The notes under the pieces are model-generated. The model searched no databases. It had not been told where the DNA came from and saw nothing but the letters and a program-made list of their open reading frames with translations. A program made the translations under genes and the position numbers. A stretch of DNA of 64,000 nt from a virus (Duplodnaviria; Heunggongvirae; Uroviricota; Caudoviricetes), in IMG/VR virus record IMGVR_UViG_3300042889_002176, positions 20,554 to 84,553 of that record; one strand, written 5' to 3'. Within the stretch, counting starts at the first letter, position 1. Each line of letters starts with the position of its first letter. This document shows, in pieces, positions 26,549 through 63,391 of this stretch.

Positions 26549-27461
26549 CATAGCAGACCTAGACGTGATATTTTTGACATTTGATGAACCCAAGAAAGAA
26601 GAATACTGGGCAATCATACGCAACATGGTGCCCTGGGCGCAGCGTGTGGACGGCGTTCGCGGGTCCGACGCAGCACACAAGGCCGCTGCGGCTGCTAGCA
26701 CTACAGAACGATTCATCCTGATCGACGGGGACAACATGCCTGACGCCAAATTCTTCAATCAGACCTTGGCATTTGCTACGGCAGATTATGAATCTGCTGT
26801 GTTCCGTTGGAGAGCGAGAAATGCCGTCAACGGACTCATGTATGGCAATGGTGGACTGAGCTCTTGGACAAAAACCTTTGTGAACAGCATGCGCACACAC
26901 GAAGCCACAGACGGCCGCACAGAAACACAGGTGGAGTTTTGTTTTGATCCCTTGTACTGGGCCATGCATGACTGCTACTCAACAACCTATCCCAATGGAT
27001 CTGCTTTTCATGCCTGGCGTGCAGGATTCCGCGAAGGTGTAAAGATGTGCCTGAATCGCGGAGCCAAGCCCACACTGGAAGAATTTAAGGATCGTGTGCA
27101 TCAACGCAATCTGGACCATCTCACCATCTGGCACAACATAGGTGCAGATGTTGACCACGGCTACTGGAGCATGGCCGGCGCAAGACAAGGCACCTACATG
27201 ACCATGCTCACAAACTGGGATCATACTCAAGTGCAGAACTTTGATGCACTGGCTGAACTGTGGAAGACTGTGGAATCCAGTGATCCAAGATTGCTAGCAG
27301 GCCGTGTGGCAGAAGATCTAGATCAACAACTGGATCTGCCAATGGCCATGCTGGAAGCAGAACAAAGCAAGTTTTTCAAGCACCACTACCGAAGCAACTG
27401 GCACAATGAAGGTATCATGGTCCGAGAAATGGATGTTATTCGAGCTCAAGAAGGTTGGTAA
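26535..27461 (+). CDS. putative glycosyltransferase, GT-A-like (LIDGDNMPD DxD motif)
   Basis: ATG at 26535 gives [19 protein letters not shown]...; the track's upstream start is a GTG. The protein carries [13 protein letters not shown]. Confidence 0.35.
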
Positions 27462-27462
27462 T

Positions 27463-37136: not shown

Positions 37137-37234
37137 ACTGGCTAAAAAAATTATGGGCAAGAATCTCCCTGGAATATCGTTACCGCAAGAAACTCAAAGA
37201 GCTACGCAAAAGAGACCCTTTCATTTATAAATGA
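37133..37234 (+). CDS. small basic peptide (33 aa), candidate coupled ORF
   Basis: MNWLKKLWARISLEYRYRKKLKELRKRDPFIYK has an SD (aaggaaa) upstream and ATGA overlaps with both neighbours. It is below the ORF-track threshold. Confidence 0.3.
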   Translation: MNWLKKLWARISLEYRYRKKLKELRKRDPFIYK

Positions 37235-38712
37235 ACATACTGGGAATATCGGCAGGATTCCATGATGCTGCTGCCACGGTACTGGATCATGACGGCAACA
37301 TTCTTTTTGCCGGCCATTCAGAACGCTACAGCAAAAAGAAAAATGACGCTGATATCAGTTTAGGACTGATTGCCGACGTACTGTATTATGGTCAGCCTGA
37401 ACAAGTTGCTTACTATGAGCGTCCTTGGCGTAAACAACTGCGACAATGGTATTCAGGACAAGGTATCGAGTGGAACAAACTCACTGTAGGACAGATCTTG
37501 AAGGCACAACTGGGCAATCAGATCAAGCCTGAGCATGTGTCCAGTTACAATCATCATCTAAGTCATGCCGCAGGCGGATTTCAGACCAGCCCATTTGATC
37601 GAGCCACAGTTGTGGTAATAGACGCTGTGGGTGAGTGGGACACCATAACCATCTGGGGCGCTGAATACAATTCTCAGGGCCGAGCAACTTATCGAAAACT
37701 TTGGTCCCGCGGGTATCCGCACAGCATAGGATTGTTCTACAGTGCAGTCACTGCTCGTGTGGGTCTTAGACCCCTGGACGAAGAATACATTCTAATGGGC
37801 ATGGCTGCATACGGACAAAACAATATCAGCAATCGACTGCGCTACGATCTTATCGACAATGAATATGAAATTCGATTCAAAGAGAATCTACATACAGGTC
37901 TTGAAGCTGAATATCTAAATGATTATTCAGAGTTTGATATTGCCGCCGGGGCACAGGCTCTAGCAGAAGACCTTATTTTGAATGTGATGGTTCGTGCTAA
38001 GAAACTGAACTGGAGCCGGAACCTAGTTTACATGGGCGGTGTTGCTCTTAACTGTAGTGCCAACCAACGGATTGGAAATTATTTTGACAACATCTGGATC
38101 ATGCCTTGTCCTGGTGACGCAGGCAGTAGTCTTGGCGCTGCTGCCTTGGCACATGGTGGTCGAATCAACTGGACCAATGCTTATCTTGGCCACAATATCC
38201 TCGGTGCTTATCCTGTCAATGCCATCCTGGATGAGTTGGTCACTAGAAAAATTGTGGGAGTGGCTAGTGGTCGAGCAGAATTTGGACCCAGGGCCCTGGG
38301 CAATAGAAGTTTGTTAGCAGACCCTCGTGGCTCGGAAATAAAGGATCAAGTAAATGAGATCAAACGTAGACAACAATTCAGACCATTTGCACCAGTTATC
38401 CTTGAAGAATACGCTGATCAGTATTTTGATATGCCTAGGGGTTTCAGCACTAGTAGGTATATGCAAGCAGTCGCCAACTGCTGGTATCCTGATCTTTTTC
38501 CTGCTATTGTGCATCATGACGGCACTAGTAGAGTGCAGACAGTTCCTGCGGATGGTTCAGGCATTAGAGAACTCTTGGAAAAATGGTACGTGATGACTGA
38601 TTGTCCTATGCTGCTCAACACGTCATTGAACATACGCGGAGAGCCCATGGTCAATGATCGAGCAGATGCGGACCGCTTTGAACGTGAGTACGGCGTTCGA
38701 GTTTGTAGTTAA
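37231..38712 (+). CDS. carbamoyltransferase, NodU/CmcH family
   Basis: The N-terminus MNILGISAGFHDAAATVLDHDGNILFAGHSERYSKKKND and the HHLSHAAGGF motif match the Kae1/HypF-like fold of O-carbamoyltransferases. 493 aa. Confidence 0.7.
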   Translation: MNILGISAGFHDAAATVLDHDGNILFAGHSERYSKKKNDADISLGLIADVLYYGQPEQVAYYERPWRKQLRQWYSGQGIEWNKLTVGQILKAQLGNQIKPEHVSSYNHHLSHAAGGFQTSPFDRATVVVIDAVGEWDTITIWGAEYNSQGRATYRKLWSRGYPHSIGLFYSAVTARVGLRPLDEEYILMGMAAYGQNNISNRLRYDLIDNEYEIRFKENLHTGLEAEYLNDYSEFDIAAGAQALAEDLILNVMVRAKKLNWSRNLVYMGGVALNCSANQRIGNYFDNIWIMPCPGDAGSSLGAAALAHGGRINWTNAYLGHNILGAYPVNAILDELVTRKIVGVASGRAEFGPRALGNRSLLADPRGSEIKDQVNEIKRRQQFRPFAPVILEEYADQYFDMPRGFSTSRYMQAVANCWYPDLFPAIVHHDGTSRVQTVPADGSGIRELLEKWYVMTDCPMLLNTSLNIRGEPMVNDRADADRFEREYGVRVCS

Positions 38713-42024: not shown

Positions 42025-44223
42025 ATGTTTGACGTATTTTATTCTGGAAAGAAACCCAACTTGTTTGTGCATGAGCAGGAAGCTGACAGCATTGAGCATG
42101 CGCAGACTCTGAGTCGTACTAGGTATTTCTGGTGGATCACATACTTAGCTGATTATAGCACACATGATTGGGATTTTCAACCTGTGCCTTGGCAAAGCGA
42201 GTACACTCACACATGGCCCAGTCAACATCATGAGTATTCGGGCACATACCTTGTGCCCAGGGGCGGCGAGATCAAATATCACTTTCATGATCGAATTATT
42301 CCAAACAAAAGTTCGACTATGCATTTCTATACTGCAATGTCAAACGCAGAGTTTGATTACTCCTGGGCACCACATCCGCATGATCCTCCTTACATCTATG
42401 TGTTTGGCAACCAGTGGTGGCCAGCAGAGATCATGCCCACAGTAGAATATCATGTGCCGGGTGCAACTGAACGCAAGTACATGACAACACCAAGAGCTGA
42501 GCTGACACAAAATCCCAATCGACCCTGGTACAACGTGGTCAACAGCGACATGGACTATTCATGGGTACCTGATCCTGGAGATGTTCCTTACATCTATGTG
42601 TTTGGCAACCAGTGGTGGCCAGCAGAGATCATGCCCACTGTGGAGTATCGTGTGCCAGGCGCAACTGAACGCAAGTATGTTGCATGGCCACGTGCTAGTT
42701 TGCTAGCAAACTCTGCTAGATGGACTGTGCCTGATTCAGTTGATCCTGCTGGTGTAGACTTTAGCTGGGTACCTGATCCTGGAGAACCGCCCTATGTGTA
42801 TCAGTTTGCTACACAACATCAAAAGACTGGCGGACCTGTTTATCGTGTGCCCGGTGCGGTAGAAGTCAAGTACCTTGCTGAACTAAAAATTCGCACAGTG
42901 GGCAAAGCCACAGCCATATACGAAATTGATCACATGGATGGCGCCGCTGGACAGATACCCAACATCACTCGTCGAGTGCGATACTTTGACAACTATAGAG
43001 ATACCTTGATACGCTTGGCCAAGAGCATAGGCACAGAACATGAATATGTCTGGGTATGCAGCAGCATCTGTGATTACACTGACTTTGACTTCTCGTGGCA
43101 TCCCGAACAATGGCAAGCCACAATGCTGCATGTGTTTGCAAGTGATACAGAAAAGTTTGGAGACACATTCTTCATGCATGTGCCTACCTTTGCTGAGTAT
43201 GCAGAACGCAAGGAATTGCTGGAATGGTATGATTGCAATTTTGTCAGTGTTGGTGTACCTCGCAGACCCATGCCCGTAGTACAACACGATCAAGACAGTC
43301 ATGTGGATGTGGTTCGTACCCGAAACTTTGCCGGTCCACTGGCAGTGTTCACACAGTCCGACTACATGAGCACAAACTTGGTCACTGTGCCACTATGGAG
43401 AGAACAAACCAAGACCATAGTTCCGTTGAATCCTGGTGCCAGCAGTGTGGTTGTACCTCGAACGGCCATACCCTACATCAAGACGCAGCTATATGATTAT
43501 CCCTATGTAGACAAGACGCACTGCATGCTAAAGGATCAGCTACAGGATATTGTGTTCATCTCCAACGGTGAACCCAATGCTGAGCAACATTACAAAAGAT
43601 TGAGTTTGTTGCCCAAGGCTAATCGCCTGGTGCGTGTGAGCAACATCAATGGTCGTGCAGCAGCATATCATGCAGCAGCTGAGGCCAGCACCACACCCTG
43701 GTTCTTTGCTGTGTTTGCCAAGCTGGAAGTGGACATTGACTTTGACTTTACTTGGCAACCTGATCGCATGCAACAGGCCAAGCACTACATCTTCCATGCC
43801 CAGAATCCTGTTAATGGCCTAGTATACGGACACCAGGCCATGATTGCATACAACCGGCAATTAGTATTGGATAACCCGGGTATAGGCCTGGACTTCACAC
43901 TGGACTCACCGCATGAAGTGGTGCCTATCTTGAGTGGCGTGGCACACTATAACACTTCACCGTGGTCAAGCTGGCGCACAGCGTTTCGTGAATGTATCAA
44001 ATTGAAAGCCAGCTTGCCTGATGTGGAAAGTGAATATCGGTTAGGCAAATGGCTTGATGTCAACAGCGACGAAGCAGATCCTCAGTGGAGCCGATGGGGT
44101 GCAGAGGATGCTGTGAATTACTACGATGCAGTCAACGGCAACTTTGATGCGCTGAAGAAAAGCTACGAGTGGGAGTGGCTAGCTAGTTATGCTTTTATCA
44201 AACGCAGTCTAGTACCGAACTAA
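42025..44223 (+). CDS. hypothetical protein (732 aa) with five D(F/Y)SWxP(D/E)P-type repeats, three of them near-identical
   Basis: The repeats are DYSWAPHPHDPPYIYVFGNQWWPAEIMPTVEYHVPGATERKY, DYSWVPDPGDVPYIYVFGNQWWPAEIMPTVEYRVPGATERKY and DFSWVPDPGEPPYVYQF...VPGAVEVKY. Degenerate copies follow (DFDFSWHPEQW, DFDFTWQPDR). Confidence 0.5.
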   Translation: MFDVFYSGKKPNLFVHEQEADSIEHAQTLSRTRYFWWITYLADYSTHDWDFQPVPWQSEYTHTWPSQHHEYSGTYLVPRGGEIKYHFHDRIIPNKSSTMHFYTAMSNAEFDYSWAPHPHDPPYIYVFGNQWWPAEIMPTVEYHVPGATERKYMTTPRAELTQNPNRPWYNVVNSDMDYSWVPDPGDVPYIYVFGNQWWPAEIMPTVEYRVPGATERKYVAWPRASLLANSARWTVPDSVDPAGVDFSWVPDPGEPPYVYQFATQHQKTGGPVYRVPGAVEVKYLAELKIRTVGKATAIYEIDHMDGAAGQIPNITRRVRYFDNYRDTLIRLAKSIGTEHEYVWVCSSICDYTDFDFSWHPEQWQATMLHVFASDTEKFGDTFFMHVPTFAEYAERKELLEWYDCNFVSVGVPRRPMPVVQHDQDSHVDVVRTRNFAGPLAVFTQSDYMSTNLVTVPLWREQTKTIVPLNPGASSVVVPRTAIPYIKTQLYDYPYVDKTHCMLKDQLQDIVFISNGEPNAEQHYKRLSLLPKANRLVRVSNINGRAAAYHAAAEASTTPWFFAVFAKLEVDIDFDFTWQPDRMQQAKHYIFHAQNPVNGLVYGHQAMIAYNRQLVLDNPGIGLDFTLDSPHEVVPILSGVAHYNTSPWSSWRTAFRECIKLKASLPDVESEYRLGKWLDVNSDEADPQWSRWGAEDAVNYYDAVNGNFDALKKSYEWEWLASYAFIKRSLVPN
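42388..42440 (+). repeat. 53-bp perfect direct repeat, copy 1 (inside 42025..44223)
   Basis: ccttacatctatgtgtttggcaaccagtggtggccagcagagatcatgcccac is identical to the sequence at 42586-42638. Confidence 0.8.
42586..42638 (+). repeat. 53-bp perfect direct repeat, copy 2
   Basis: Identical to 42388-42440. Flanking codons are diverged, which indicates a recent in-frame duplication or gene conversion. Confidence 0.8.
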
Positions 44224-45307
44224 TAATGTATTCTACTTCTGAGTCTGTGAGCTCAGGATAGATAGGCAGACTCAGTGCTCGTCTACTCAATGAACTTGCA
44301 GCACTAAGAATACTAGGTCCAGCATACTGTTGATATGCCGCCAGTTCGTGCAATGGATGTTGGTAATGTACTCGAGTCTCTATGCCCGCAGACTTCAGAT
44401 CTGCTTGCAGTTGATCCCGATTGCTGGTATCAATAACAAATTTGTGAAAACAGTGAGTAGACACATTTGAATCGTCGATCAAACAACGAAACGGTGCTTT
44501 ACCAAATGCGTCTATGTAGCGCAGTGCAATTTTTTCCCTGCGAGCTTGCCACGCATCTAGATACACAGTCTTGACCATCATTTGCGCACAGTCTACTTCG
44601 CTCATGCGTGAGTTAGTGCCTGTTTGTGTATGACCAGATCGTTTACCGTTGTCACTCCAGTTACGAGCATAGTCACTTAGATTGCGGTCGTTGGTGACTA
44701 CGGCACCACCGTTGCCGTAGTTGTTTAGATTTTTCATGGGATCAAAACTGATAGCACTGGCTTCGCCCACACGATGGCAACGGTCAGACAACCAGTGTTG
44801 TGCTGCATCTTCAATTATCAGGTGGCTAACACGGCGTAGACTATCAGACAATGCTGCGCCATACAATCCAATGCCAAGTATGGCTTCGTAACTCAGGTGT
44901 GGTGGTTTATCTCTAAATTGCATGTTGCCATTGGCATCGGTGTCAACCAAGTGTATGTTCCATCCTGCTCGTACAAATGCATTTGCACTGGCAGGAAATG
45001 TCATGGCAGGAATTAACACTGTAGGTGGTGTTGGCTGGGGATGCAGGCTATGCTCTGTGCGGTAATAGCCAGCCAGTATCTCCAGAGCCTGTGTACCCGA
45101 ATGGCACAGTACTGCATAATTCGAATGATTTTTTTGAGCCAACCATTCCTCAAACTGTTGAGTGAACTGGCCGTTCATGAGATTGCCAGATGCTAGAACC
45201 TGGTCCGTTGCATCCAGTATCTCCTCTCTGAGATTATTATACTGTCTTTGTAGACCAGTAAACGCTATTTGAAAGCCACTCATAGTAATTTTGGAATCCT
45301 TGTTCAA
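44198..45307 (-). CDS. DegT/DnrJ/EryC1/StrS-family PLP-dependent sugar aminotransferase
   Basis: The N-terminus ...FTGLQRQYNNLREEILDATDQVLASGNLMNGQFTQQFEEWLAQKNHSNYAVLCHSGTQALEIL is the family signature. Its 3' end overlaps the convergent + gene by 26 nt. Confidence 0.7.
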   Translation of the reverse strand: MNKDSKITMSGFQIAFTGLQRQYNNLREEILDATDQVLASGNLMNGQFTQQFEEWLAQKNHSNYAVLCHSGTQALEILAGYYRTEHSLHPQPTPPTVLIPAMTFPASANAFVRAGWNIHLVDTDANGNMQFRDKPPHLSYEAILGIGLYGAALSDSLRRVSHLIIEDAAQHWLSDRCHRVGEASAISFDPMKNLNNYGNGGAVVTNDRNLSDYARNWSDNGKRSGHTQTGTNSRMSEVDCAQMMVKTVYLDAWQARREKIALRYIDAFGKAPFRCLIDDSNVSTHCFHKFVIDTSNRDQLQADLKSAGIETRVHYQHPLHELAAYQQYAGPSILSAASSLSRRALSLPIYPELTDSEVEYIISSVLDCV

Positions 45308-46205
45308 CGTCTACTCGGGGATCAAAGCCCAGTATGGTTCTTGCACGATCGATGTTTAATGCGCCACGACTGGGAAAGTCTGCATCTCGATCTCGACATT
45401 CAATGGTACCAGAACCCACGATCTTCACAATCATTTCGGCTGCTTGTAACAAACTCACTGAATGTGATTTGGTAATGTTGTATGTTCGGTTGGCACTCAT
45501 GATTCTAGTTGCAGCAGCAACCACACCATCGGCAGCATCATCCACATAGGTAAAGTCCAGTGTTTCGCCTGCACCATTGACTTTCAGCACACCGCCACGC
45601 ATGGCGGTCAGCATGAACTTGGCCACCACACGATCCTCCACATCGAGCGGTCCGTACACAGCACTGGGACGAAGTATCACATACTCCATGCCGGTTCTGC
45701 GAGCATAATCTTTGACCAACCATTCACCGGCCAGCTTCATGATACCATACTGTCCTTGCGGCCTGCACTCGTCGTCCTCTAACACTTGATCTTCAAAGTC
45801 GCCGTAGACCATGCTGCTGGACATGTACACAAAGCGGCGGACCTGGTGTTTTTTGGCACTCTCAAGAAGATTGATTAGACCACGCATCATGACATCAGCA
45901 GCCAATGCAGGGTTGGCATTGACTACTTTTTGTCTGGGAAAGCTGGCACAGTGTATGATTACCTCTGGTGTCTCTTTACCAATAATGGCATCCATACGAT
46001 CTGCATTTTCAATGTAGTCGTGATAGTGACTACATGGTGCTAGTTTTTTAAGACGTTCACCAATCAAATAGTCAACTTCTTCACGCGGAATAATACCGTA
46101 GGTGGTTTGGCTATCCACAATGCTCACTGTGTCATTGCGCTGCTGCAAACGAGCCGCCACATTGTGCCCAATCAGCCCTAGTCCGCCGGTTATCAATACT
46201 TTCAT
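45237..46205 (-). CDS. NAD-dependent epimerase/dehydratase (extended SDR)
   Basis: ATG at 46205 (MKVLITGGLGLIGHNVAARL...) gives the GxxGxxG Rossmann motif; a YxxxK-type region (MSSSMVYGD) follows. Confidence 0.7.
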   Translation of the reverse strand: MKVLITGGLGLIGHNVAARLQQRNDTVSIVDSQTTYGIIPREEVDYLIGERLKKLAPCSHYHDYIENADRMDAIIGKETPEVIIHCASFPRQKVVNANPALAADVMMRGLINLLESAKKHQVRRFVYMSSSMVYGDFEDQVLEDDECRPQGQYGIMKLAGEWLVKDYARRTGMEYVILRPSAVYGPLDVEDRVVAKFMLTAMRGGVLKVNGAGETLDFTYVDDAADGVVAAATRIMSANRTYNITKSHSVSLLQAAEMIVKIVGSGTIECRDRDADFPSRGALNIDRARTILGFDPRVDVEQGFQNYYEWLSNSVYWSTKTV

Positions 46206-46477
46206 TGGTTGCCCCATTTCATTTGATACCATGTATACACTTTTTCATCCATCACAGTAAAGTCTCCGGCTCTGCTGTATTCCCAGTATCTTCCGTCTCG
46301 ATATGTTCCTGCGTGTCCAAAACTCGTGAGCAGCCAGTTTTCTGCAGCCATACCTGGCCACCCTTTTATCTTGTACAGTGTGATTGGCACAAACTGTTCA
46401 CCATCCCACACTTGTTTCTTCACAGGCGGCGGCAGTGTGACTTCAGCATCTACATATTCAATTTTTTGTGTCCACAT
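46202..46477 (-). CDS. hypothetical protein (91 aa)
   Basis: Internal ATG (MWTQKIEYVDAEVTLPPPVKK...) of the track ORF 46202..46591. Overlaps the next gene (ATGA). Confidence 0.4.
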   Translation of the reverse strand: MWTQKIEYVDAEVTLPPPVKKQVWDGEQFVPITLYKIKGWPGMAAENWLLTSFGHAGTYRDGRYWEYSRAGDFTVMDEKVYTWYQMKWGNQ

Positions 46478-46793
46478 ATTTGAGCCTCCAAAAAGTTTCG
46501 TTGGATTCGCTGAGTCGTGCCACGATACGATACACCTGATGGTAGCCTGTGTGATCCATATGATGAGTCCAGTAAGGTTTTGATACAGCATGCTCCATCA
46601 CAAACTTGCCTGCGTCTGTTTGTTGCCATTCCCAGATTGGTGCAGCAACATATATGTCCGGATCCTCTACATCACCCATTCTAATTTCATGCACACACAC
46701 GTCACGAAAACGCACTGGCTTGTTGTCCAAAATTTTTGTTTCGGCAGCACGCCAGTGCTTGTATTCGTCTTGTTTGTTATGTACCATTGCCAT
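46458..46793 (-). CDS. hypothetical protein (111 aa), His-rich (possible cupin-like)
   Basis: The ORF starts exactly downstream of the consensus promoter; ...WTHHMDHTGYHQVYRIV... It is the first gene of the transcription unit ending with the epimerase and aminotransferase. Confidence 0.5.
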   Translation of the reverse strand: MAMVHNKQDEYKHWRAAETKILDNKPVRFRDVCVHEIRMGDVEDPDIYVAAPIWEWQQTDAGKFVMEHAVSKPYWTHHMDHTGYHQVYRIVARLSESNETFWRLKYVDTKN

Positions 46794-46798
46794 AACAC

Positions 46799-46828
46799 AT
46801 TATAGCAGATTATTTTATCAGTGTCGAG
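46799..46828 (-). promoter_or_regulatory. sigma70-like promoter P1 (TCGACA-17-TGCTATAAT), leaderless geometry
   Basis: On the - strand, TGCTATAAT is the reverse complement of 46799-46807 and the -35 TCGACA is the reverse complement of 46822-46827, with a 17-nt spacer. The start codon of the downstream gene (46793) lies ~6 nt after the -10. Confidence 0.5.
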
Positions 46829-47496
46829 GTCATTGGAAAAATTGCTGCAATGGCCTGGGCGCAAGCACGAGCAATGTCCATGTGTTCTTTTTGAGTACCG
46901 TTGCTGGCACGAAGCTCAATGTAATGAATCCAGCTGCGCAAGGTACCGTTCATGTACATGCGACTCACAGTTAGTCCTTCTGGCAGCACAGCCCGAGCCT
47001 GTTCTTTGGCAATGCCATTGGCAATGGCCCAGGAGTATTCTTGTTTGACGCTGAACAGCACACGCTTCTGAGCACGTTCCCATTCAATGGCCAGGAGCTT
47101 TTGTGCTTCGTCACTCATGTCTAGCTCTACACTGTTCTGTCGATTCTTTGTGTCCTGGAATCTTGCCTCACGTAGCACAAACGCTTCATCAAGTTCAGCT
47201 GTAGGATCAGCATATCTCTGACTGAACTCCTGGAAGCTGAAACTTCTGTGACGTAGAATCTGTCGGGCAATGTCTCTGGTGGTGACAATTTCCATGCAGG
47301 CACTGACCATCTCGAGTGGACTCCAGTGCTGGTGTTTGACCAAGTATCGGATGAGTTTTTCTGATGTGTCTGTGTTGAACTGATTGGCAGGATTGCTGAC
47401 ACGGGCACAATACGCAATGAGCTCTTGGGCATCGCTGATGCCCTGGTTGGTAAATTCTGCAGTGGGTTCTGAAGAGGAGATAAGTCTAACATTCAT
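46810..47496 (-). CDS. thyX: flavin-dependent thymidylate synthase
   Basis: The ThyX signature RHRSFSFQEFSQRY (RHRxxSxxExSxRY) is present. 228 aa. Confidence 0.85.
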   Translation of the reverse strand: MNVRLISSSEPTAEFTNQGISDAQELIAYCARVSNPANQFNTDTSEKLIRYLVKHQHWSPLEMVSACMEIVTTRDIARQILRHRSFSFQEFSQRYADPTAELDEAFVLREARFQDTKNRQNSVELDMSDEAQKLLAIEWERAQKRVLFSVKQEYSWAIANGIAKEQARAVLPEGLTVSRMYMNGTLRSWIHYIELRASNGTQKEHMDIARACAQAIAAIFPMTSTLIK

Positions 47497-52012: not shown

Positions 52013-52437
52013 TTTGTGATCTCCAGCCGGGTCAGTGCTGAGTCAAACTTTTTGTCTGCGGGCCAGTCTGCAAGATAACCGTTGTCCTTGTCAAACTGTT
52101 GTAAAAATTCATCCTCAGTAATCACTCTGTGTGACACAATCTGCTCGCCCAGGCACTCCTGGCTAAACTCTACAGCCTGTTCCATGGTCACAGTGTCTCT
52201 GGCCCACTCTTCCGGTGAATCTTCTGCCAGTTCCACAGCATAACGCATGCGATATGATACCAGTGCATCAACCAGCACAATCCTGGTCTTGGGCTTCTTG
52301 CTCATGGTCCAGGAACCATCTTTGTTATCAGTCCACACAACAGTGTCACCAATTTGCCAACCAACTGACTGCAACAGTTCGTCGCTGAGTGGCAGAATCA
52401 AATCGCCGTTGGCATCTTGCTCTAGTCTAACAATCAT
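52009..52437 (-). CDS. hypothetical protein with N-terminal AbrB/MazE-like swapped-hairpin motif
   Basis: MIVRLEQDANGDLILPLSDELLQSVGWQIGDTVVW resembles the SpoVT/AbrB/MazE DNA-binding fold. An acidic C-terminal half follows. Confidence 0.45.
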   Translation of the reverse strand: MIVRLEQDANGDLILPLSDELLQSVGWQIGDTVVWTDNKDGSWTMSKKPKTRIVLVDALVSYRMRYAVELAEDSPEEWARDTVTMEQAVEFSQECLGEQIVSHRVITEDEFLQQFDKDNGYLADWPADKKFDSALTRLEITK

Positions 52438-53711
52438 TTGTTTTTCTCCTCATCGTAGTAGGCATGCTGTCCCCAAGGTGGCACAATGGTTGTAGTGCCA
52501 TGCAAGATCCACACAGTGTCTGCGTAGTTCTCATCACCCCATGAACCAAACGGGTAGCCGTCTGTGAACACTACCAGGCGCTTGGGTTCAATCTCGTTCT
52601 CTTTCAGGTAGTTGAAGATACATTCAAAGTCTGTGCCACCACCACCCTTGATTTCGTAATCGCAGATGTCATCTAAGTTTTCACTGTCATACTGCACAGG
52701 GTTGTATGCTTCGGTATCAAATGTGACCACATGAATACGGTATGCTGGGAACGATTCCATGATGCCTTGAATCTCACCCAAGAAGTCTTTCAGCATGGTT
52801 TCGCTAATACTGCCAGATGCATCCAGAGCCACAGCAATATCAATCATGGGATCCAGTTTCATGCCAGGCATGACTGCATCCATGTGCCAGCCTTTACGGC
52901 TTGCTCGCATCCAGGTGTAGTCACTTTTGATAGTGCTCTCCAATTGCATACGCAACAGTTCACGCCAGTTCATTTGTGGCTCGGTGAGCTCCTGGATCAG
53001 TCGCTTGACACCTGCGGGCAAGTTGCCTGCTCCGTCCACTGTGGCAGCCGCTGCCAGCATGGCTTCCTTGATCTCATCCTTGATGGCTTGACGTTCTTCG
53101 GCAGTGAGTTTGGGACGACCTTTGCCTTTGCCATCTTGATCGTCGTCACTGTCGCTGTCGCCTTCACCATCCAGGTGCTCGTCGATCATTTGATCCAGCA
53201 ATTTGCCAATGTCAATCTTGTCTGCTTTTTCATACAAGATATCGTAGATTTCTTCGGAGCTCATGCCATCATACTTGGGATCATACAAACAAGGCACTGA
53301 CGTGATCTTTTCACCTACTTTGTGTTTGATTAGGTCTGCATTAACGCAAAAGTCATTGGCAATGTTAAACAGTTGAGGATCTCTATCACCCCTACGGCCA
53401 AAGTGATCATATACACAATGCAAGACTTCGTGGCCAAACAAGAATTCAATTTCTTTGGGACGCAACAGTTTGATGAAACGGCTGTTGTAATAGAAGTTTC
53501 TGCCGTCTGTTGCGGCGGTACTGCACCATTCGTCGGCATTGACCAGTTTCAATCTAGTGGCCAAGTTGCCAAAGAAACTGGCTTTCAACAGCAAGCCCAC
53601 ACGGGCAGTGATCAAAAGCTCACGTACTTCTCGATCAATTTTGGGATCAGTTTTGCCCAGCAAGTTGGCAAACTTCTTGTGGTCTTCTTTTGTAGCAGTA
53701 GTAGATGTCAT
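52434..53711 (-). CDS. VWA-domain protein with N-terminal HExxH metallopeptidase-like region (CobT-like / MoxR-partner)
   Basis: ATG at ~53711 (MTSTTATKEDHKK...) with an SD (aaagga); the track start 53789 is a GTG inside the tandem repeat. The HExxH motif is GHEVLHCVYDH. An acidic linker DGEGDSDSDDDQDG follows. The C-terminal VWA has a MIDAS motif DASGS. Confidence 0.65.
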   Translation of the reverse strand: MTSTTATKEDHKKFANLLGKTDPKIDREVRELLITARVGLLLKASFFGNLATRLKLVNADEWCSTAATDGRNFYYNSRFIKLLRPKEIEFLFGHEVLHCVYDHFGRRGDRDPQLFNIANDFCVNADLIKHKVGEKITSVPCLYDPKYDGMSSEEIYDILYEKADKIDIGKLLDQMIDEHLDGEGDSDSDDDQDGKGKGRPKLTAEERQAIKDEIKEAMLAAAATVDGAGNLPAGVKRLIQELTEPQMNWRELLRMQLESTIKSDYTWMRASRKGWHMDAVMPGMKLDPMIDIAVALDASGSISETMLKDFLGEIQGIMESFPAYRIHVVTFDTEAYNPVQYDSENLDDICDYEIKGGGGTDFECIFNYLKENEIEPKRLVVFTDGYPFGSWGDENYADTVWILHGTTTIVPPWGQHAYYDEEKNK

Positions 53712-53736
53712 GCGAGTCCTTTGTTGCTTATGTGTA

Positions 53737-53766
53737 ATTATAGCACAATAGCGATTAATGGTCAAA
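53737..53766 (-). promoter_or_regulatory. sigma70-like promoter P2 (TTGACC-17-TGCTATAAT)
   Basis: -10 and -35 read on the - strand; the spacer is exactly 17 nt. It lies ~25 nt upstream of the VWA ATG. Coordinates are +-2 nt. Confidence 0.5.
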
Positions 53767-53847
53767 TCAGCTATTGTTCTGACGTTCACGGTTTAGGTAG
53801 CGATTAATGGTCAAATCAGCTATTGTTCTGACGTTCACGGTTTAGGT
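53750..53847 (+). repeat. perfect 49-bp tandem duplication (2 copies)
   Basis: agcgattaatggtcaaatcagctattgttctgacgttcacggtttaggt occurs twice head-to-tail. It contains the -35 element of P2 and the last ~11 codons plus stop of gene 53816..54148. Coordinates are +-2 nt. Confidence 0.8.
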
Positions 53848-54781: not shown

Positions 54782-55867
54782 TTAGGTACTAGCAGCCAAA
54801 ATGTACTTGCCAAAGCGTTGATGGAACTCGTCAAAGTTTTTCAGCTTGGTAGGCATCATGGGCAAGTTATAAGTAGTAAGGGCAATTCTAGCACCCATCA
54901 CAGTCAACTCTGTTTCAAAGTTTTTCATCATGTAGCCCAGGAAGTGGTCGGCCATGTCCTGAAACTTTTTGTCCTCCACCTTGTTCTCCACAGCGGCCTT
55001 GAGCTCGTAGCACATGGAGATCACCAGGCTGTACATGGCACTGACTTCTTTGACGTCAAGAGTGGTAACCTTGCCACTCAAGATATCTGCAGGGTTGGGC
55101 ATGCGTCCGGCAATCTTGCGATGTGCCATGAACTTCACAGCAAGACCTTCGCCCACAGTGCCTGCAATCAGGTTGGTCATGGTGTTGTCGTCGCTGTCAT
55201 CTTCTTGCAGGAGCTCGCTTACAAAACTCCAGGTACGCGGTGTAGCAAACGCACGTGAGCTGGACTTAGAATCAAAGTCGTACAGGTCCTGTTTAGCAAA
55301 GCTCAAGTAGCCAACCACGTCCTTGTGAACTTTGTTGGTTACAGCCCACTCTTGCCAACTAGCAAAATCCACCTTCATCTCTTGGTGCAAGAAACGGTTT
55401 GCCAGCGGAGTAGGCATGCGGTAAGTAACGCCCTTGTCGCTTTCCCTGTTGCCTGCGGCAACCATAACAACATTTTTAGGCAGGCGATATTTGCCAATGC
55501 GTCGATTCAGAATCAACTGATATGCGGCACTTTGAACGCTGGGTGCGGCTGAATTCAACTCGTCCAGGAACAGGACCACAATGGGATAGTCCTTGGCCAT
55601 TTCTTCGTCGGGCAATTCCACAGGAGGTGCCCAATCCATCTTGCCAATGTCCTTGTTGTAGAACGGAATGCCACGAATGTCGGTGGGTTCCATCTGGCCC
55701 AGGCGCAGATCAATCATTAGGCCACCTAGCTCTTTGGTGATATTTTCCACCAGTTCGCTTTTGCCAATACCCGGAGGACCCCACAGGAACAACGGACGCT
55801 GGACGCGGAATGCTTTGAGCAGGCTCTTGCGGGCTTGTGCAGAAGTAACAGTGCGGGTATCTGACAT
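54782..55867 (-). CDS. MoxR-family AAA+ ATPase (CobS-like)
   Basis: Walker A LWGPPGIGKSE; Walker B VVLFLDELN; sensor region VMVAAGNRE. 361 aa, the typical size of cyanophage/pelagiphage cobS homologs. Confidence 0.7.
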   Translation of the reverse strand: MSDTRTVTSAQARKSLLKAFRVQRPLFLWGPPGIGKSELVENITKELGGLMIDLRLGQMEPTDIRGIPFYNKDIGKMDWAPPVELPDEEMAKDYPIVVLFLDELNSAAPSVQSAAYQLILNRRIGKYRLPKNVVMVAAGNRESDKGVTYRMPTPLANRFLHQEMKVDFASWQEWAVTNKVHKDVVGYLSFAKQDLYDFDSKSSSRAFATPRTWSFVSELLQEDDSDDNTMTNLIAGTVGEGLAVKFMAHRKIAGRMPNPADILSGKVTTLDVKEVSAMYSLVISMCYELKAAVENKVEDKKFQDMADHFLGYMMKNFETELTVMGARIALTTYNLPMMPTKLKNFDEFHQRFGKYILAAST

Positions 55868-58490: not shown

Positions 58491-58754
58491 TCAACTCCCA
58501 AATGCTTTTTCAATTGGCTCGTAATACTCAACCCCAAACCTGGCTTTGATCCGTTGAATTTCTGGTCTTTGCATTGGTCCATCACCCACTGCATCCATAC
58601 ATTCCTGCACAATCAACTGGGCGAACTTTGAATCGTATCGCTGTTTATACATTCCTTGATTGTAAGGGTTGTGTGGATTGTAATCTGGTTGTCGAGCATA
58701 TTCACAAGCATAGCAATGAGCCTGTTCGGCAAGTTGTTGAATTTGTTTGTTCAT
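58491..58754 (-). CDS. small paralog-family protein (MNKQIQQLAEQA...KFAQLIVQEC...ARFGVEY...)
   Basis: Internal ATG at 58754. A ~57-aa GTG-start ORF with an N-terminal TM (ITLFIWTVVGYAG), ~58770-58917, fills the gap to the upstream member and overlaps via ATGA. Confidence 0.5.
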   Translation of the reverse strand: MNKQIQQLAEQAHCYACEYARQPDYNPHNPYNQGMYKQRYDSKFAQLIVQECMDAVGDGPMQRPEIQRIKARFGVEYYEPIEKAFGS

Positions 58755-58917
58755 TTGGTCTTCAGGCAACGGTGCCTGTCCTGTAGGTTCATGGATCGCA
58801 CAGCCTCCTCACAGAGCGCGACTGTCTCAAACTGAGCCAAAGCCCGCCAGTCCATTTTAGTACTGATGCTATTGTTCATACCAGCGTAGCCGACCACAGT
58901 CCAGATAAACAGTGTGA

Positions 58918-59157
58918 TCACGATTCAACTCCGAAATGTTCTTCAATATCATTGATTGCTGTGGACATTGCTTCATCCACATTCCATTCATCTTCGATAG
59001 CCAGGTCTCTGTTAACAGATACCAGTTCCACACATTCCTGCACAATCAACTGGGCGAATTTTTCAATCATCTCTGGACTCATACTGTACCAGTCTGCCTT
59101 GTTCCAGTTGTCAGTGACCCCAGCTTGTTTTAAAAGTTCTTGAATTCGTGGGTTCAT
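58918..59157 (-). CDS. small paralog-family protein (MNPRIQELLKQA...KFAQLIVQEC...EHFGVES)
   Basis: Family consensus. Confidence 0.55.
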   Translation of the reverse strand: MNPRIQELLKQAGVTDNWNKADWYSMSPEMIEKFAQLIVQECVELVSVNRDLAIEDEWNVDEAMSTAINDIEEHFGVES

Positions 59158-59269
59158 TCTGCAACTCCGTGATATTTCAATTGTGGTCTACGCCACAGTA
59201 ACCATCCAATATACAGACCCTGTAGCCATCCAATTGCTAGACACATTAGTAATACCCAATCGTTCTGTG

Positions 59270-59500
59270 TCATAGTTCAACTCCAAAATGTTTCTTAATC
59301 AACTCCACAGCCTGCCCACGGCTGATCATATCACGCAACATAGGACTCAATGCTACACCGCATTCCTGCACAATCATGTCAGCGAACTTTTCAAGTTCAT
59401 CTTCCCAACACTCGGCAAATGCTCTAACAGGTTTTTCTGTTGGGTCATAGGTAAACTCAATGTTTGCTTTTTCAGCAAGTTGTCGAATTCGTTGGTTCAT
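59270..59500 (-). CDS. small paralog-family protein (MNQRIRQLAEKA...KFADMIVQEC...KHFGVEL)
   Basis: Internal ATG at 59500 matches the family N-terminus. Confidence 0.5.
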   Translation of the reverse strand: MNQRIRQLAEKANIEFTYDPTEKPVRAFAECWEDELEKFADMIVQECGVALSPMLRDMISRGQAVELIKKHFGVEL

Positions 59501-59703
59501 TCCGCAACTCCGAAATGTTCTTGAATCTTGGCATGGATCAACCATGTATATTCACATTCTTCTGTGTCGGGCGTGTGATACTTGGCAATATCCATACATT
59601 TCTTAACAATCAACTCGGCGAACTTTTCATTGTCAAAATGTAGTTGGCCTTCTGGACGCTTGTCCCAGCATTGTTCAGCCAACTCTTTAATTCGTGTGTT
59701 CAT
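59497..59703 (-). CDS. small paralog-family protein (MNTRIKELAEQ...KFAELIVKKC...EHFGVAE)
   Basis: Internal ATG at 59703, with a TGATG overlap with the upstream member. Confidence 0.5.
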   Translation of the reverse strand: MNTRIKELAEQCWDKRPEGQLHFDNEKFAELIVKKCMDIAKYHTPDTEECEYTWLIHAKIQEHFGVAE

Positions 59704-60080
59704 TAGTCTTGCCATTCTGATGGATGAAGTTTTGGGATATATCCGTATCTGCTGGCAACCTTTTTATTCTCTGCGGCAATAAATTCAGCTGCTTCTTGAT
59801 CCCAGTCTGACTGTGGTTTTGCAACGTCAAAATGGTCTGCAATTGACCGGGCCACCCAGGCCACTGCCGCATGTTGTGCAGGCTCATCTTCCAACATGTC
59901 ATCCACCCGGGCAACCTGGGCCAAACATTCAGCCACAATCAGTTCAGCGAACTTTTTGTTATACACATCACGATATTCTTCCATACATTGTTCGGTGTTA
60001 TGCACTCGTTCATAAATTCGCTTTTCATCTAGGGCATAGTTCCTAGCCTCAACGACAAGTTCTCGAATTCGTGTGTTCAT
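59703..60080 (-). CDS. paralog-family protein, long form (125 aa; MNTRIRELVVEA...KFAELIVAEC...DHFDVAK + C-terminal extension)
   Basis: Family N-terminus and core, with an extra ~40 aa C-terminal tail. Confidence 0.5.
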   Translation of the reverse strand: MNTRIRELVVEARNYALDEKRIYERVHNTEQCMEEYRDVYNKKFAELIVAECLAQVARVDDMLEDEPAQHAAVAWVARSIADHFDVAKPQSDWDQEAAEFIAAENKKVASRYGYIPKLHPSEWQD

Positions 60081-60307
60081 CATTCAACTCCGAAATGTTT
60101 TTCAATCTGATATACAGCAAATTCCGTTCCCATCTTCCACATTCTTTCATATTCATCTTCAGCAGGAACTTCGGCAGCCTCAGTATTAATAACTGATATA
60201 CATTTCTGAACAATCAACTGGGCGAACTTTTCTTTATCAAAAAGCCAACCATCACTGTTATTGTAAGATGTAGCCTGTTCGGCAAGTTGTTGAATTCGTT
60301 TGTTCAT
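60080..60307 (-). CDS. small paralog-family protein (MNKRIQQLAEQA...KFAQLIVQKC...KHFGVE)
   Basis: Family consensus. Confidence 0.55.
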   Translation of the reverse strand: MNKRIQQLAEQATSYNNSDGWLFDKEKFAQLIVQKCISVINTEAAEVPAEDEYERMWKMGTEFAVYQIEKHFGVE

Positions 60308-60504
60308 GCATTTTCTCCTGTGTAGCCCCAGAACTTGGTGTAGGATTCGCCCACCTTGTATCTGCCATTGTCTCGCAAAACAGTTTGAGCATCCAGGCGT
60401 ATGACCAGATCGCCTTTGTTTATCTCTCCAACCGCCCAGGCTGGCACTCGGACCACAACATCAATACGCCGCTTTATCAAGGTGTAGGGATGGGTCACTT
60501 TCAC
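60304..60504 (-). CDS. hypothetical protein (66 aa)
   Basis: ORF inserted between family members, coupled at both ends. Confidence 0.4.
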   Translation of the reverse strand: MKVTHPYTLIKRRIDVVVRVPAWAVGEINKGDLVIRLDAQTVLRDNGRYKVGESYTKFWGYTGENA

Positions 60505-60719
60505 GATTCGACTCCAAAGTGTTCTTTTATAACCTTGCCGATTTCGTAATCATCATCAGCAGTTAACCCGACCTCGCGTCTAAAATCAATATTAGCACAT
60601 TCCCGCACAATCAACTCGGCGAACTTTGCTTGGTCAACCTTAGAAAACACCCATACACGGTTTTCGGGATCAACTGCTTTAGTTGCCTGTTTCAGTAGTT
60701 CTCGAATTCGTTCGTTCAT
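60501..60719 (-). CDS. small paralog-family protein (MNERIRELLKQA...KFAELIVREC...EHFGVES)
   Basis: Family consensus. Confidence 0.55.
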   Translation of the reverse strand: MNERIRELLKQATKAVDPENRVWVFSKVDQAKFAELIVRECANIDFRREVGLTADDDYEIGKVIKEHFGVES

Positions 60720-61560: not shown

Positions 61561-61590
61561 ATTATAGCAGAATGGGCATTTTGGGTCAAC
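61561..61590 (-). promoter_or_regulatory. sigma70-like promoter P7 (TTGACC-17-TGCTATAAT)
   Basis: Exact 17-nt spacer with an extended -10. Confidence 0.55.
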
Positions 61591-61991
61591 CGAAATAATG
61601 TTGCTAAAAAACAACAAAAATTGCCGGTTAAATCAGGGTAATGTATTAGTAGAAACCATGAGAGTCTCATGGTAAATACTGAGAAGGAACAGCAATGTTG
61701 AAAACTCTAGTGAATCTACTAAAAAAGATATTCCCGGGAACTGATGCCCATTCTTGCATGGAACAGTACTTGATCAGCAAGAATATACAAACTGCTGGAG
61801 AAGCAGATTACTGGCAACGCCAGTTTGAAATACGTCAACACAAAAGATGGCTATGATGAAAAAATTATTTAATTCGGTATTTGATTACTTGTGCGCAATT
61901 GGTGATGTTCTTTATGAATACCGCCGCTTGGACCGTCGCCACTATTACTAAACTTGTTGTCAAACATGATGACCTTTGATTTCTGCAATAG

Positions 61992-62528
61992 CTAGCCTGC
62001 GTACCAGACCTCATCAAAGCCCTCTTCTAACGTTGGCATTTCAAAATTATTAATCATGTTCTGAACAACTTCGTCCGGGATTACCTTGCCCGGACGACTT
62101 GCTAACCGCCGAGTCAATTCGTCTGGCTCGGGAGTTCGAAACACCACTGCAATGTGCTTGTAGTTGGGCAACTCAACAAACTTTTTCCTGCGGCTTTTAA
62201 CTGTGGTGCTGGTCTGGTCCCACACAATGTCCAGCCCAAAAGCTGCTGCCATATTAACATTTACCATCATCTGCTTGACAGCAGTGGGCATGTATTCCTC
62301 AAACACTTCACTGTATGTTTTATCCTGATCTTGAGCGTATGCTTCTACATGCTGATCTGTAGAAACATACTTGTGATCTTTTTTATCTTTGCCCAACCAA
62401 TCTTGATTGCGGTACCAGGTACTCTTGCCGGAGCCTGGCACTCCTACCAATATGTATACAGTTGACACCTGATTGTCGTTGCTATTAATCAGGATAAGAT
62501 CTTTTACGGGGTGCAGCAGCAGCGTCAC
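61992..62528 (-). CDS. P-loop nucleotide/polynucleotide kinase (T4 Pnk kinase-domain-like)
   Basis: Walker A ILVGVPGSGKSTW. The downstream region (...RRKKFVELPNYKHIAVVFRTPEPDELTRRLASRPGKVIPDEVV) resembles the kinase half of phage Pnk. There is no phosphatase domain. Confidence 0.55.
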   Translation of the reverse strand: MTLLLHPVKDLILINSNDNQVSTVYILVGVPGSGKSTWYRNQDWLGKDKKDHKYVSTDQHVEAYAQDQDKTYSEVFEEYMPTAVKQMMVNVNMAAAFGLDIVWDQTSTTVKSRRKKFVELPNYKHIAVVFRTPEPDELTRRLASRPGKVIPDEVVQNMINNFEMPTLEEGFDEVWYAG

Positions 62529-62736
62529 GCATGAGGTATTCGCGGCCTACTTTTCCTTGCTCAATTTCCAACAAGGCAGTGACGCCGTGCCCGTGTTTGC
62601 TTGGGACTCGAGCCAGGTGGCCTCGAGCTAGTTCTCGCATGCGTAAAGACGCAATCAAGACCAAATCGTAACGATTGCCAACAGCTTCTACAGCAGCCTG
62701 GCTAGTGAGCCCAGCAGTTCTTTCAAAATCTCTCAT
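62485..62736 (-). CDS. RNA polymerase omega subunit (RpoZ)-like protein
   Basis: AVEAVGNRYDLVLIASLRMRELARG...GVTALLEIEQG aligns by eye with the E. coli RpoZ core ([26 protein letters not shown]...TVIALREIEEG). Confidence 0.5.
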   Translation of the reverse strand: MRDFERTAGLTSQAAVEAVGNRYDLVLIASLRMRELARGHLARVPSKHGHGVTALLEIEQGKVGREYLMRDAAAAPRKRSYPD

Positions 62737-63020
62737 GGTGTACTTTCTGATGTTTTTCCGTTTGAATGACGTTTGCGTACTGCATCAGTGTCCTGAAACA
62801 GTCGCTTCTCTTGTGTAGTAGGTTCGTTGAACACCTTGCGTGGGTTACCGCACATCATGCATCGGGGATCACCGCAGTTCATGGCATGATGTTTGGCAAA
62901 CCTATGAGGTTCCTCAACATTGCTTCCATACTGTTTTGCAATCCTGGTCTGCTTTTTTACGGCTGACTCATCACTGAGGCGGCGCCTTGAGTTTTTGAAT
63001 CGGTCTTGTTCAGTGCTCAT
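62733..63020 (-). CDS. hypothetical basic protein (95 aa) with CxxC...CxxC pair
   Basis: ...HAMNCGDPRCMMCGNPRK...; its stop overlaps the rpoZ-like start (ATGA). It is the first gene after P8. Confidence 0.5.
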   Translation of the reverse strand: MSTEQDRFKNSRRRLSDESAVKKQTRIAKQYGSNVEEPHRFAKHHAMNCGDPRCMMCGNPRKVFNEPTTQEKRLFQDTDAVRKRHSNGKTSESTP

Positions 63021-63050: not shown

Positions 63051-63080
63051 ACTATAACACACTCAGCACAAGACGTCAAC
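63051..63080 (-). promoter_or_regulatory. sigma70-like promoter P8 (TTGACG-17-TGTTATAGT)
   Basis: Exact 17-nt spacer; the leader carries an SD (aaggaa) before the ATG at 63020. Confidence 0.45.
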
Positions 63081-63199: not shown

Positions 63200-63391
63200 A
63201 TGAAACAACTTATCGCTATTATCGCTACCCTGACCGTTGCTACTGCATTTGCTCAAGCACCTGCTGCTGCTCCTGCTGCTGCAAAACCTGCTGCCGCTCC
63301 TGCTGCTGCTCCTGCTGCCAAGAAAGAAGAAGCCAAAAAGCCAGCAGCTAAAAAAGAAGAAGCCAAGCCTGCTGATTCAGCTAAGAAGTAA
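63200..63391 (+). CDS. small secreted/low-complexity protein (signal peptide + PAAA / KKEEAK repeats)
   Basis: MKQLIAIIATLTVATAFA | QAPAAAPAAAKPAAAPAAAPAAKKEEAKKPAAKKEEAKPADSAKK, with a strong SD (ttaaggaaaatacc ATG). Confidence 0.5.
   Translation: MKQLIAIIATLTVATAFAQAPAAAPAAAKPAAAPAAAPAAKKEEAKKPAAKKEEAKPADSAKK

Follow-up and report, generated by a model that had tools for sequence, protein, structure and literature searches.

We analyzed a 64,000-nucleotide stretch of viral DNA (the window; positions 20,554 to 84,553 of IMG/VR record IMGVR_UViG_3300042889_002176) and found that the open reading frame (ORF) at 62485..62736 is a true phage-encoded homolog of omega (RpoZ), which among the subunits of bacterial RNA polymerase is the smallest. 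The gene sits in phage DNA, not host DNA, and the clade that carries it consists of uncultured T4-like jumbo phages. The viral protein keeps the omega core and has lost the residues that face the alarmone guanosine tetraphosphate (ppGpp) at site 1 of the polymerase. We give an even chance to the reading that the viral omega swaps into the host polymerase and leaves ppGpp site 1 non-functional. The homology itself is ordinary and machine-annotated, as annotation pipelines already label the protein "DNA-directed RNA polymerase subunit omega". What has gone undescribed is its fixation in a large phage clade and the coordinated loss of the ppGpp-contact residues. In the literature we found no paper on a phage-encoded omega, nor one describing any core subunit of bacterial polymerase that is carried by a virus.

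The gene encodes 83 amino acids on the minus strand and starts with ATG, with no alternative in-frame start upstream, exactly as given in an earlier reading of the bare sequence (the original prediction). That reading had called the product omega-like and had proposed a search with the Rpb6/omega profile. The search recovered the family: PF01192 (RNA_pol_Rpb6), whose gathering score is 26, matched at 35.7 bits (E = 8.7e-9), and residues 16-63 cover positions 3-51 of the 53 in the profile. TIGR00690 (rpoZ), an NCBI equivalog model, was passed marginally, at 25.8 bits against a cut-off of 23.6, while the narrower model NF001579 was not reached (23.9 against 58) and no PHROG family matched. A phmmer search against all PDB chains returned omega subunits exclusively (best E = 5.5e-8), and the identity to the E. 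coli or Vibrio omega was about 42%. The original prediction had the protein aligning with bacterial omega along its whole length. This holds for the core, as residues 8-68 align to omega residues 2-64 in the best PDB alignment, but residues 1-7 and 69-83 lie outside it.

An AlphaFold2 model built from 26 homologs had a mean predicted local distance difference test score (pLDDT) of 80.5 and contained helices at residues 12-19, 22-38, 49-59, and 65-69. When the model was searched against the PDB with Foldseek, the top 50 matches were all omega chains of bacterial polymerases (50/50), with probabilities up to 1.00 and template modeling scores of 0.59/0.67. The Foldseek E-values were weak (best 4.5e-3) because the protein is short. 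In E. coli numbering, the core residues conserved in both cellular and viral groups were N15, R16, F/Y17, L19, L21, A23, R26, R28, L30, G34, T49, A50, L51, E53, I54, E55, and G57. Apart from L30 and T49, these residues were checked in the window omega, which has all of them with one conservative change, F17 to Tyr, and the checked residues were 72-100% conserved across 170 viral sequences. The viral protein thus shares with the bacterial RpoZ of proteobacterial, MAR-starting type its family, its four-to-five-helix fold, its core motifs (NR[FY]xL, RxR, and TALxEIExG), and its approximate size (83 amino acids compared with 67-91). Because it passes curated profile cut-offs and has the omega fold, we conclude that it is an omega homolog.

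The viral and cellular proteins differ at the ppGpp-facing residues. When ppGpp is bound at site 1, its 5'- and 3'-phosphates face omega R3 and R52 (Molodtsov et al., bioRxiv 10.1101/188680). In a 2026 cryo-EM study, most contacts of the 5'-diphosphate came from Ala2 and Arg3 of omega and Arg417 of beta-prime (PMC13192712), and according to a review the N-terminal Met-Ala-Arg (MAR) motif predicts binding of (p)ppGpp by the polymerase at site 1 (PMC6912228). All cellular omegas that we recovered (37, plus that of E. coli) start with MAR[IV]TV, and the Arg of their NRF motif lies at a constant distance of 15 residues from the Met. The window omega starts with MRDFERTAGLTS and has no MAR. It belongs to a group of 170 distinct viral omegas, denoted GL-type, in which 5-25 extra N-terminal residues (6 in the window omega) precede a nearly invariant Gly-Leu-Thr-Ser (GLTS) motif, whose positions are 84-100% conserved.

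The position of E. coli Arg3 is taken by Gly9 in the window omega, and by Gly in 169 and Ser in 1 of the 170 GL-type sequences. At the Arg52 position, the GL-type sequences have Leu in 103 cases, Lys in 43, Gly in 11, and Arg in 2. Both ppGpp-facing arginines are lost in about 99% of the GL-type sequences, whereas MAR, Arg3, and Arg52 are all kept in 37/37 cellular omegas and in 7/7 distinct viral omegas of a rarer MAR type. The window omega therefore lacks the proteobacterial site 1 feature (MAR, Arg3, and Arg52). The original prediction had suggested that a phage omega could alter sensitivity to ppGpp, and the replacement of both site-1-facing arginines across the viral lineage lends specific support to this suggestion. 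The viral MAR-type omegas (L119, L120, L130, L131, L133, L016, and L018) have a host-like N-terminus and form a natural control for the GL-type.

Other changes were also specific to the viral proteins. Q29 is replaced by Glu (100%) and K45 by Gly, and a Tyr-Leu pair is conserved at 63-64. The C-terminal tail is basic, with a PRRR motif, whereas the cellular tail is acidic or absent; in the viral omegas it has a mean net charge of +3.3, compared with -4.3 for the cellular sample. We also considered whether the N-terminal extension could be an acidic plug that mimics the phosphates of ppGpp. Its mean net charge is -0.09, which does not support this idea.

We propose that host sigma-70 polymerase would transcribe the omega gene early, as the second gene of an operon that encodes a zinc-knuckle protein, omega, and a P-loop kinase. 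Through its conserved core, the viral omega would bind host beta-prime at the normal omega site, where the core residues presumably hold it. It could enter newly assembled or omega-free polymerase, or get in by mass action. Such entry is plausible because omega is sub-stoichiometric in purified E. coli polymerase, where 17-25% of particles lack it (PMC13192712), and because it can be re-added in vitro to saturation (PMC7676912). The N-terminal extension and the changes from Arg3 to Gly9 and from Arg52 to Leu56 would remove the phosphate-facing arginines and the free MAR N-terminus. Because these elements are missing, a polymerase with the viral omega would have no working site 1, and phage transcription would be partly uncoupled from the stringent response. 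We infer both the binding to host polymerase and the loss of ppGpp sensing from the conserved core and the pattern of substitutions.

Several points weigh against this reading. In E. coli, site 1 contributes less to the control of initiation than the DksA-dependent site 2, and loss of omega has a mild phenotype only (PMC7676912), so ablation of site 1 alone may bring a small benefit. In one assay, E. coli polymerase that lacked omega residues 2-5 and carried three beta-prime substitutions near site 1 still bound ppGpp, with a loss of only about 2-fold (PMC7676912). The Lys present at the R52 position in 43/170 sequences might still contact phosphate. The strongly constrained GLTS motif argues for a gained interaction, not a simple loss. 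That the host polymerase has a site 1 at all is suggested only by the nearest sampled cellular omegas, which are from Betaproteobacteria and have MAR. Finally, the HD_4 hydrolase gene that accompanies omega in some related loci was absent from the 64-kb window, from the adjoining 8.7 kb, and from the 20-kb locus L005.

The viral omega is under purifying selection and is both functional and old in the phage lineage. The ratio of non-synonymous to synonymous divergence (dN/dS) was 0.05-0.25 in close pairs of viral omegas with unsaturated synonymous divergence, and the window omega and that of L001 differed by a dN of 0.15 and a dS of 1.7. A phage could also retain the gene as a plain supply of extra omega, which would serve the folding and assembly of beta-prime or the stability of the polymerase during host shut-off, with the differences from cellular omega having no regulatory meaning. 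The intact core residues and the existence of host-like viral MAR-type omegas are consistent with this, and omega has been described as a chaperone of beta-prime assembly and a stabilizer of transcribing polymerase (PMC5811629, PMC13192885). However, the loss of both arginines in about 99% of 170 sequences, combined with a new motif and a basic tail, is unlike neutral drift. Omega is also dispensable for growth of E. coli (PMC7676912), which makes supply a weak reason for clade-wide retention at a dN/dS of about 0.1-0.2. We consider this explanation improbable.

We constructed a neighbor-joining tree from 55 non-redundant omegas (75 columns, 50 bootstraps). The viral omegas were split from the sampled cellular ones in 50/50 bootstraps, Betaproteobacteria were the closest sampled cellular group, and the viral MAR-starting omegas branched basally. 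This topology suggests that omega was captured once, long ago, from a proteobacterial host, although the assignment of a donor group is tentative because the pattern-based search used to collect the cellular omegas biased the sample. In seven loci (L011-L014, L089, L132, and L135), genes of the TctC family (tripartite tricarboxylate transporter receptor) were observed inside the viral module. The TctC family is especially expanded in Betaproteobacteria, and these genes may hint at a betaproteobacterial host group.

The window opens with genes for the baseplate hub and wedge, which are those of a T4-like jumbo myovirus. The wedge gene (2628..6059) matches phrog_10646 at E = 1.7e-279, and its protein shares 33% identity with the wedge proteins of jumbo myoviruses of 350 kb, among them Serratia phage BF and Erwinia phage pEa_SNUABM_49. 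A metagenomic contig of 189,773 bp encodes an identical omega protein, as do many shorter contigs; the protein and its neighbors recur together on at least 14 independent contigs from Joint Genome Institute (JGI) and European Nucleotide Archive (ENA) assemblies. Relatives at 57-96% identity formed at least 326 protein clusters and were found on 283 IMG/VR viral contigs, many of them 100-364 kb long. The gene order was kept across 67 distinct viral loci. In each of the longer loci examined, genes for an RNaseH-like protein, a 95-100-amino-acid CxxC protein, omega, a DSPc phosphatase, an AAA_33 kinase, and a metallophosphatase follow each other on one strand. They are sometimes followed by an HD_4 hydrolase and a T4 Rnl1-like ligase, and then by a MoxR-type ATPase. 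Because of the baseplate genes and the viral contigs that carry relatives in the same gene order, we conclude that the omega gene lies in phage DNA, and the original prediction was right to consider host DNA unlikely.

The surroundings of cellular rpoZ are different. In the cellular loci that we recovered from GTDB genomes, a SpoT gene lies directly downstream, and the omegas encoded there are 34-50% identical to the viral protein. Neither gmk nor spoT adjoins the window omega, whose neighbors in the phage genome are the zinc-knuckle protein and the AAA_33 kinase; the bacterial gmk-rpoZ-spoT arrangement, which the original prediction had named as the sign of a bacterial context, is thus not found here. 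The window omega is at most about 51% identical to any sampled cellular omega. The four best GTDB matches were contigs of metagenome-assembled genomes, of which three (L015, L018, and L016) have phage-type or uninformative neighbors and one (L017) could not be placed either way.

When we searched 50,697 GenBank phage records by tblastn with GL-type and MAR-type queries, rpoZ was found in a handful. The record CAKLQH020000003.1 (Acinetobacter phage MD-2021a) turned out to be a fragment of an Acinetobacter chromosome with gmk-rpoZ-spoT, and in MG065691.1 (UNVERIFIED Campylobacter phage A11a) the region around gmk-rpoZ-spoT is 100% identical to E. coli K-12. The assignment of the GenBank rpoZ matches to host DNA rests on these two inspected records. 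Campylobacter phage A18a (MG065686.1) gave the same tblastn match as A11a. The Escherichia and Salmonella records gave the same E. coli-like match, and two of them are annotated as bacterial contigs. A weak tblastn match was also found in a 4.4-kb fecal "Bacteriophage sp." record. A megablast search of the region against phages gave no match. The view that omega is not a standard phage gene is consistent with the lack of a PHROG match and with the host origin of the GenBank matches examined. These records also illustrate how the window omega could have been host DNA, through a prophage-host junction or a chimeric assembly. This explanation is effectively refuted by the identical protein on independent JGI and ENA contigs with the same neighbors, by the gene order conserved among viral loci, by the missing gmk and spoT, and by the low identity to sampled cellular omegas.

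The region around omega has a high density of host-type promoter sites. Between 46 and 64 kb of the window there are nine sites with 11 or 12 matches to the 12-position sigma-70 consensus, every one on the coding (minus) strand; first-order random sequences contain 0.36 such sites on average. Almost all of the near-consensus sites have a 17-nucleotide spacing, and several have an extended -10 TG. This density indicates an early region that the host sigma-70 holoenzyme reads, and thus a phage that needs host polymerase at least early. The T4-type late promoter TATAAATA was found once against 1.08 expected, which is uninformative. No beta/beta-prime-like or phage polymerase gene was found among the large ORFs scanned in the window.

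These observations bear on two further explanations. In the first, the viral omega is a decoy or inhibitor that binds beta-prime, or a host factor that binds omega, unproductively and thereby aids host shut-off. Early expression from a sigma-70-type promoter, as predicted from sequence, and surfaces altered relative to host omega would fit this role. However, global inhibition of the polymerase would hurt a phage with many sigma-70 promoters and no polymerase gene seen in the window, and the beta-prime-type core is conserved, not degraded, which makes a decoy decidedly improbable. In the second, omega does not modify the host enzyme and is instead a subunit of a multisubunit polymerase encoded by the phage itself. 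Multisubunit polymerases of viral origin are present in some jumbo phages (phiKZ-like), and of the contig, about 190 kb long, the 64-kb window was examined. Against this stand the absence of a beta/beta-prime-like gene among the large ORFs scanned, the early region full of near-consensus host sigma-70 promoters, and the viral omegas themselves, which are closest to proteobacterial omegas and keep the beta-prime-binding core. The phage multisubunit polymerases are also not known to have an omega, and we regard this explanation as very improbable. Supply, decoy, phage-polymerase subunit, and contamination are progressively less likely in that order.

The gene directly upstream of omega encodes a basic CxxC protein (the partner). 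The 4-nucleotide ATGA overlap that the original prediction had described is real, and at the place of its upstream promoter there is a sigma-70-like TTGACG-17-TATAGT site, read from 63079 to 63051. The partner has an invariant H39 and H45-x3-C49-x4-C54-x2-C57, which form a putative zinc knuckle. It belongs to phrog_4499 (function unknown; E = 7.3e-11 over residues 10-77) and, with a mean column identity of 73%, is more conserved than omega. No Pfam domain was found in the window partner or in 797 partner homologs. The partner lies directly upstream, with an overlap of 4-20 nucleotides, in 50/56 GL-type loci and in 0/6 MAR-type loci (Fisher p = 1.5e-5; the loci are not phylogenetically independent).

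The partner family also occurs in phiKZ-like Pseudomonas phages, namely PhiPA3 (gp279), PA7, and pPa_SNUABM_DT01 (L143, 2492..2746). No omega lies beside the partner in these phages, and tblastn found none in them; phiKZ-like jumbo phages also make no use of the host polymerase. The partner is therefore not specific to omega. The ORF that follows the partner homolog in pPa_SNUABM_DT01 was considered as a hidden divergent omega, and hhalign gave a probability of 0.1%, indicating that it is unrelated. An AlphaFold2 model of the partner with 22 homologs had a pLDDT of 61 and a predicted template modeling score of 0.38, a quality that does not allow its fold to be searched. When the PDB was searched with a profile, the only hits were designed repeat proteins, which we consider spurious.

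The association with the partner underlies the main rival to our preferred reading. Here the viral omega would occupy the omega site as an adaptor, and its extension with the GLTS motif and its PRRR tail would dock a phage factor, most obviously the translationally coupled zinc-knuckle partner, with the loss of the ppGpp contacts as a by-product. The difference between GL-type and MAR-type loci in the presence of the partner, the high conservation of the partner with its invariant His and Cys residues, and the conservation of GLTS, which suggests a gained constraint, are all in line with it, as is the precedent of a regulator that acts via omega (PMC9638019). However, phiKZ-like Pseudomonas phages have phrog_4499 but no omega, and the partner is missing from 6 GL-type loci. 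The counts behind the association are also not independent phylogenetically, and no interface can be proposed from the poor partner model. We consider the adaptor unlikely, although less so than the other rivals, and it is compatible with the preferred reading of a swapped subunit without a working site 1. A wider statement, which we hold tentatively and at somewhat less than even chances, is that the jumbo phage clade swaps a core subunit of host polymerase for a version that lacks both ppGpp-facing arginines and works with the translationally coupled zinc-knuckle partner, such that the polymerase would either ignore ppGpp at site 1 or read another ligand or partner.

Some of the related loci carry a further link to alarmones. 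In 18/67 distinct viral loci, the strand that encodes omega also has, 1.9-4 kb further downstream, a gene of about 180 codons with an HD_4 domain and the SpoT/Rel hydrolase motif HDVVED. This HD_4 gene is a candidate small alarmone hydrolase and is often accompanied by a T4 Rnl1-like RNA ligase; the loci that have it include L011, L062, L068, L109, L119, L124, L129, L133-L135, L139, L140, and others. An HD_4 gene near omega echoes the bacterial linkage of rpoZ and spoT, and the arrangement suggests that the whole viral module handles alarmone signaling and RNA damage.

We compared the viral omega with known systems. Relative to bacterial RpoZ, it sits in a phage early operon and not in gmk-rpoZ-spoT. 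The ribosomal proteins that some viruses encode, for example bS21 (Mizuno et al. 2019, PMC6375957), are likewise viral copies of a small exchangeable subunit of a host machine and are presumably built into that machine in the same way, but the machine is the ribosome and the families are unrelated. T4 AsiA, MotA, gp33, gp55, RpbA, and Alc, T7 Gp2, Thermus phage gp39 (PMC3950348), and Xanthomonas phage P7 (PMC6624301) are likewise small early proteins thought to act on host polymerase to the benefit of the phage. All of these polymerase binders are add-on factors without homology to a subunit, whereas the viral omega would replace the native subunit. Omega is also the contact point through which a phage-like element controls polymerase in the case of GafA, an activator of gene transfer agent genes (PMC9638019). 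However, GafA binds the host's own omega, while here the phage brings its own.

Phage MazG and small alarmone hydrolases are counter-measures against the stringent response. The T7 portal protein Gp8 inhibits RelA/SpoT (PMC13483052). The same pathway is proposed for the viral omega, with HD_4 in its module, but these counter-measures act on the synthesis or degradation of the alarmone, whereas the viral omega would act at its receptor, site 1 of the polymerase.

If the preferred reading of a swapped omega is true, this would be the first virus known to swap a core subunit of bacterial polymerase, and it would extend the idea of viral copies of host machine subunits from ribosomes to the transcription apparatus. 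As an allele of omega with naturally separated functions, the viral protein would offer a handle on the in vivo role of omega and site 1, as well as on the escape of lytic phages from growth restriction by the stringent response. The family, with at least 170 distinct sequences and 283 IMG/VR contigs, is large enough to study, and the intermediates that keep MAR provide built-in controls.

The features of the omega gene and its operon are listed in Table 1.

Table 1 Features of the phage omega gene and its operon in the window.
Feature	Position	Strand	Basis
Phage omega (RpoZ-like) gene, 83 amino acids	62485..62736	-	ATG start, ORF list; omega core = residues 8-68
N-terminal extension MRDFERT, then AGLTS motif, replacing cellular MARxT	62701..62736	-	Codons 1-12; alignment to E. 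coli omega
Codon 56 (Leu), position of E. coli omega Arg52	62569..62571	-	Alignment to E. coli omega
Basic C-terminal tail with PRKR/PRRR motif, specific to viral omega	62488..62532	-	Codons 69-83; PRRR consensus in viral alignment
Upstream partner, 95-amino-acid basic CxxC protein	62733..63020	-	ORF; 4-nucleotide ATGA overlap with omega start
Downstream P-loop kinase (AAA_33; polynucleotide-kinase-like)	61992..62528	-	AAA_33, 57.2 bits
Sigma-70-type promoter-like site TTGACG-17-TATAGT, extended -10 TG	63051..63079	-	Consensus scan; ahead of partner-omega-kinase operon
Weak terminator-like hairpin, candidate operon end	61792..61806	-	Consensus scan: 5-bp stem, T-rich tail; low confidence

The original prediction had placed a gene similar to the T4 polynucleotide kinase (Pnk) downstream of omega. 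The P-loop kinase and a weaker similarity to polynucleotide kinases were found, but no 3'-phosphatase domain is fused to it, and the kinase domain stands alone. The kinase is similar to phrog_6931 and phrog_2071, to the polynucleotide kinase family phrog_505 (E = 1.2e-10), and to TIGR01663 (E = 7e-4, 18 bits against 502.8). It thus resembles the kinase of Pnk without being its orthologue. Related loci encode phosphatases (DSPc and Metallophos) in separate genes nearby, and the AAA_33 kinase is kept downstream of omega in many viral loci. On contig L006 the kinase was called as 158 amino acids, and its true start in the window is probably the GTG at 62468 (158 amino acids), not the GTG at 62528 that overlaps omega. 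Past the candidate terminator hairpin, the next near-consensus promoter lies at 61589..61561 (minus strand). Divergent from the omega operon, a 63-amino-acid ORF rich in Ala, Pro, and Lys (63200..63391, plus strand) has a signal-peptide-like N-terminus and is conserved at this place in L005-L008.

Other features were observed elsewhere in the window. Directly after the wedge gene, a single ORF of 4886 amino acids (6059..20719, plus strand) may encode a giant virion or fiber protein. At 27406..38712 (plus strand), about eight consecutive ORFs of 345-466 amino acids, several with weak Radical_SAM matches, are followed by a carbamoyltransferase gene, and genes for a DegT aminotransferase, an NAD epimerase, and ThyX lie at 44198..47496 (minus strand). 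Together these two regions look like a cluster for sugar or nucleotide modification in the phage. At 58491..60719 (minus strand), at least seven small paralogs of 72-126 amino acids are encoded in tandem. All have "RI+ELAEQA" in the N-terminal part, "KFAELIVQEC" in the middle, and "HFGVE[SL]" in the C-terminal part. A Pfam scan of two members of the array (59703..60083 and 60501..60719) gave no match. A DUF2201/VWA metallopeptidase-like gene (52434..53789, minus strand) and a MoxR-type AAA ATPase gene (54782..55867, minus strand) form a pair that recurs downstream of omega in most related loci.

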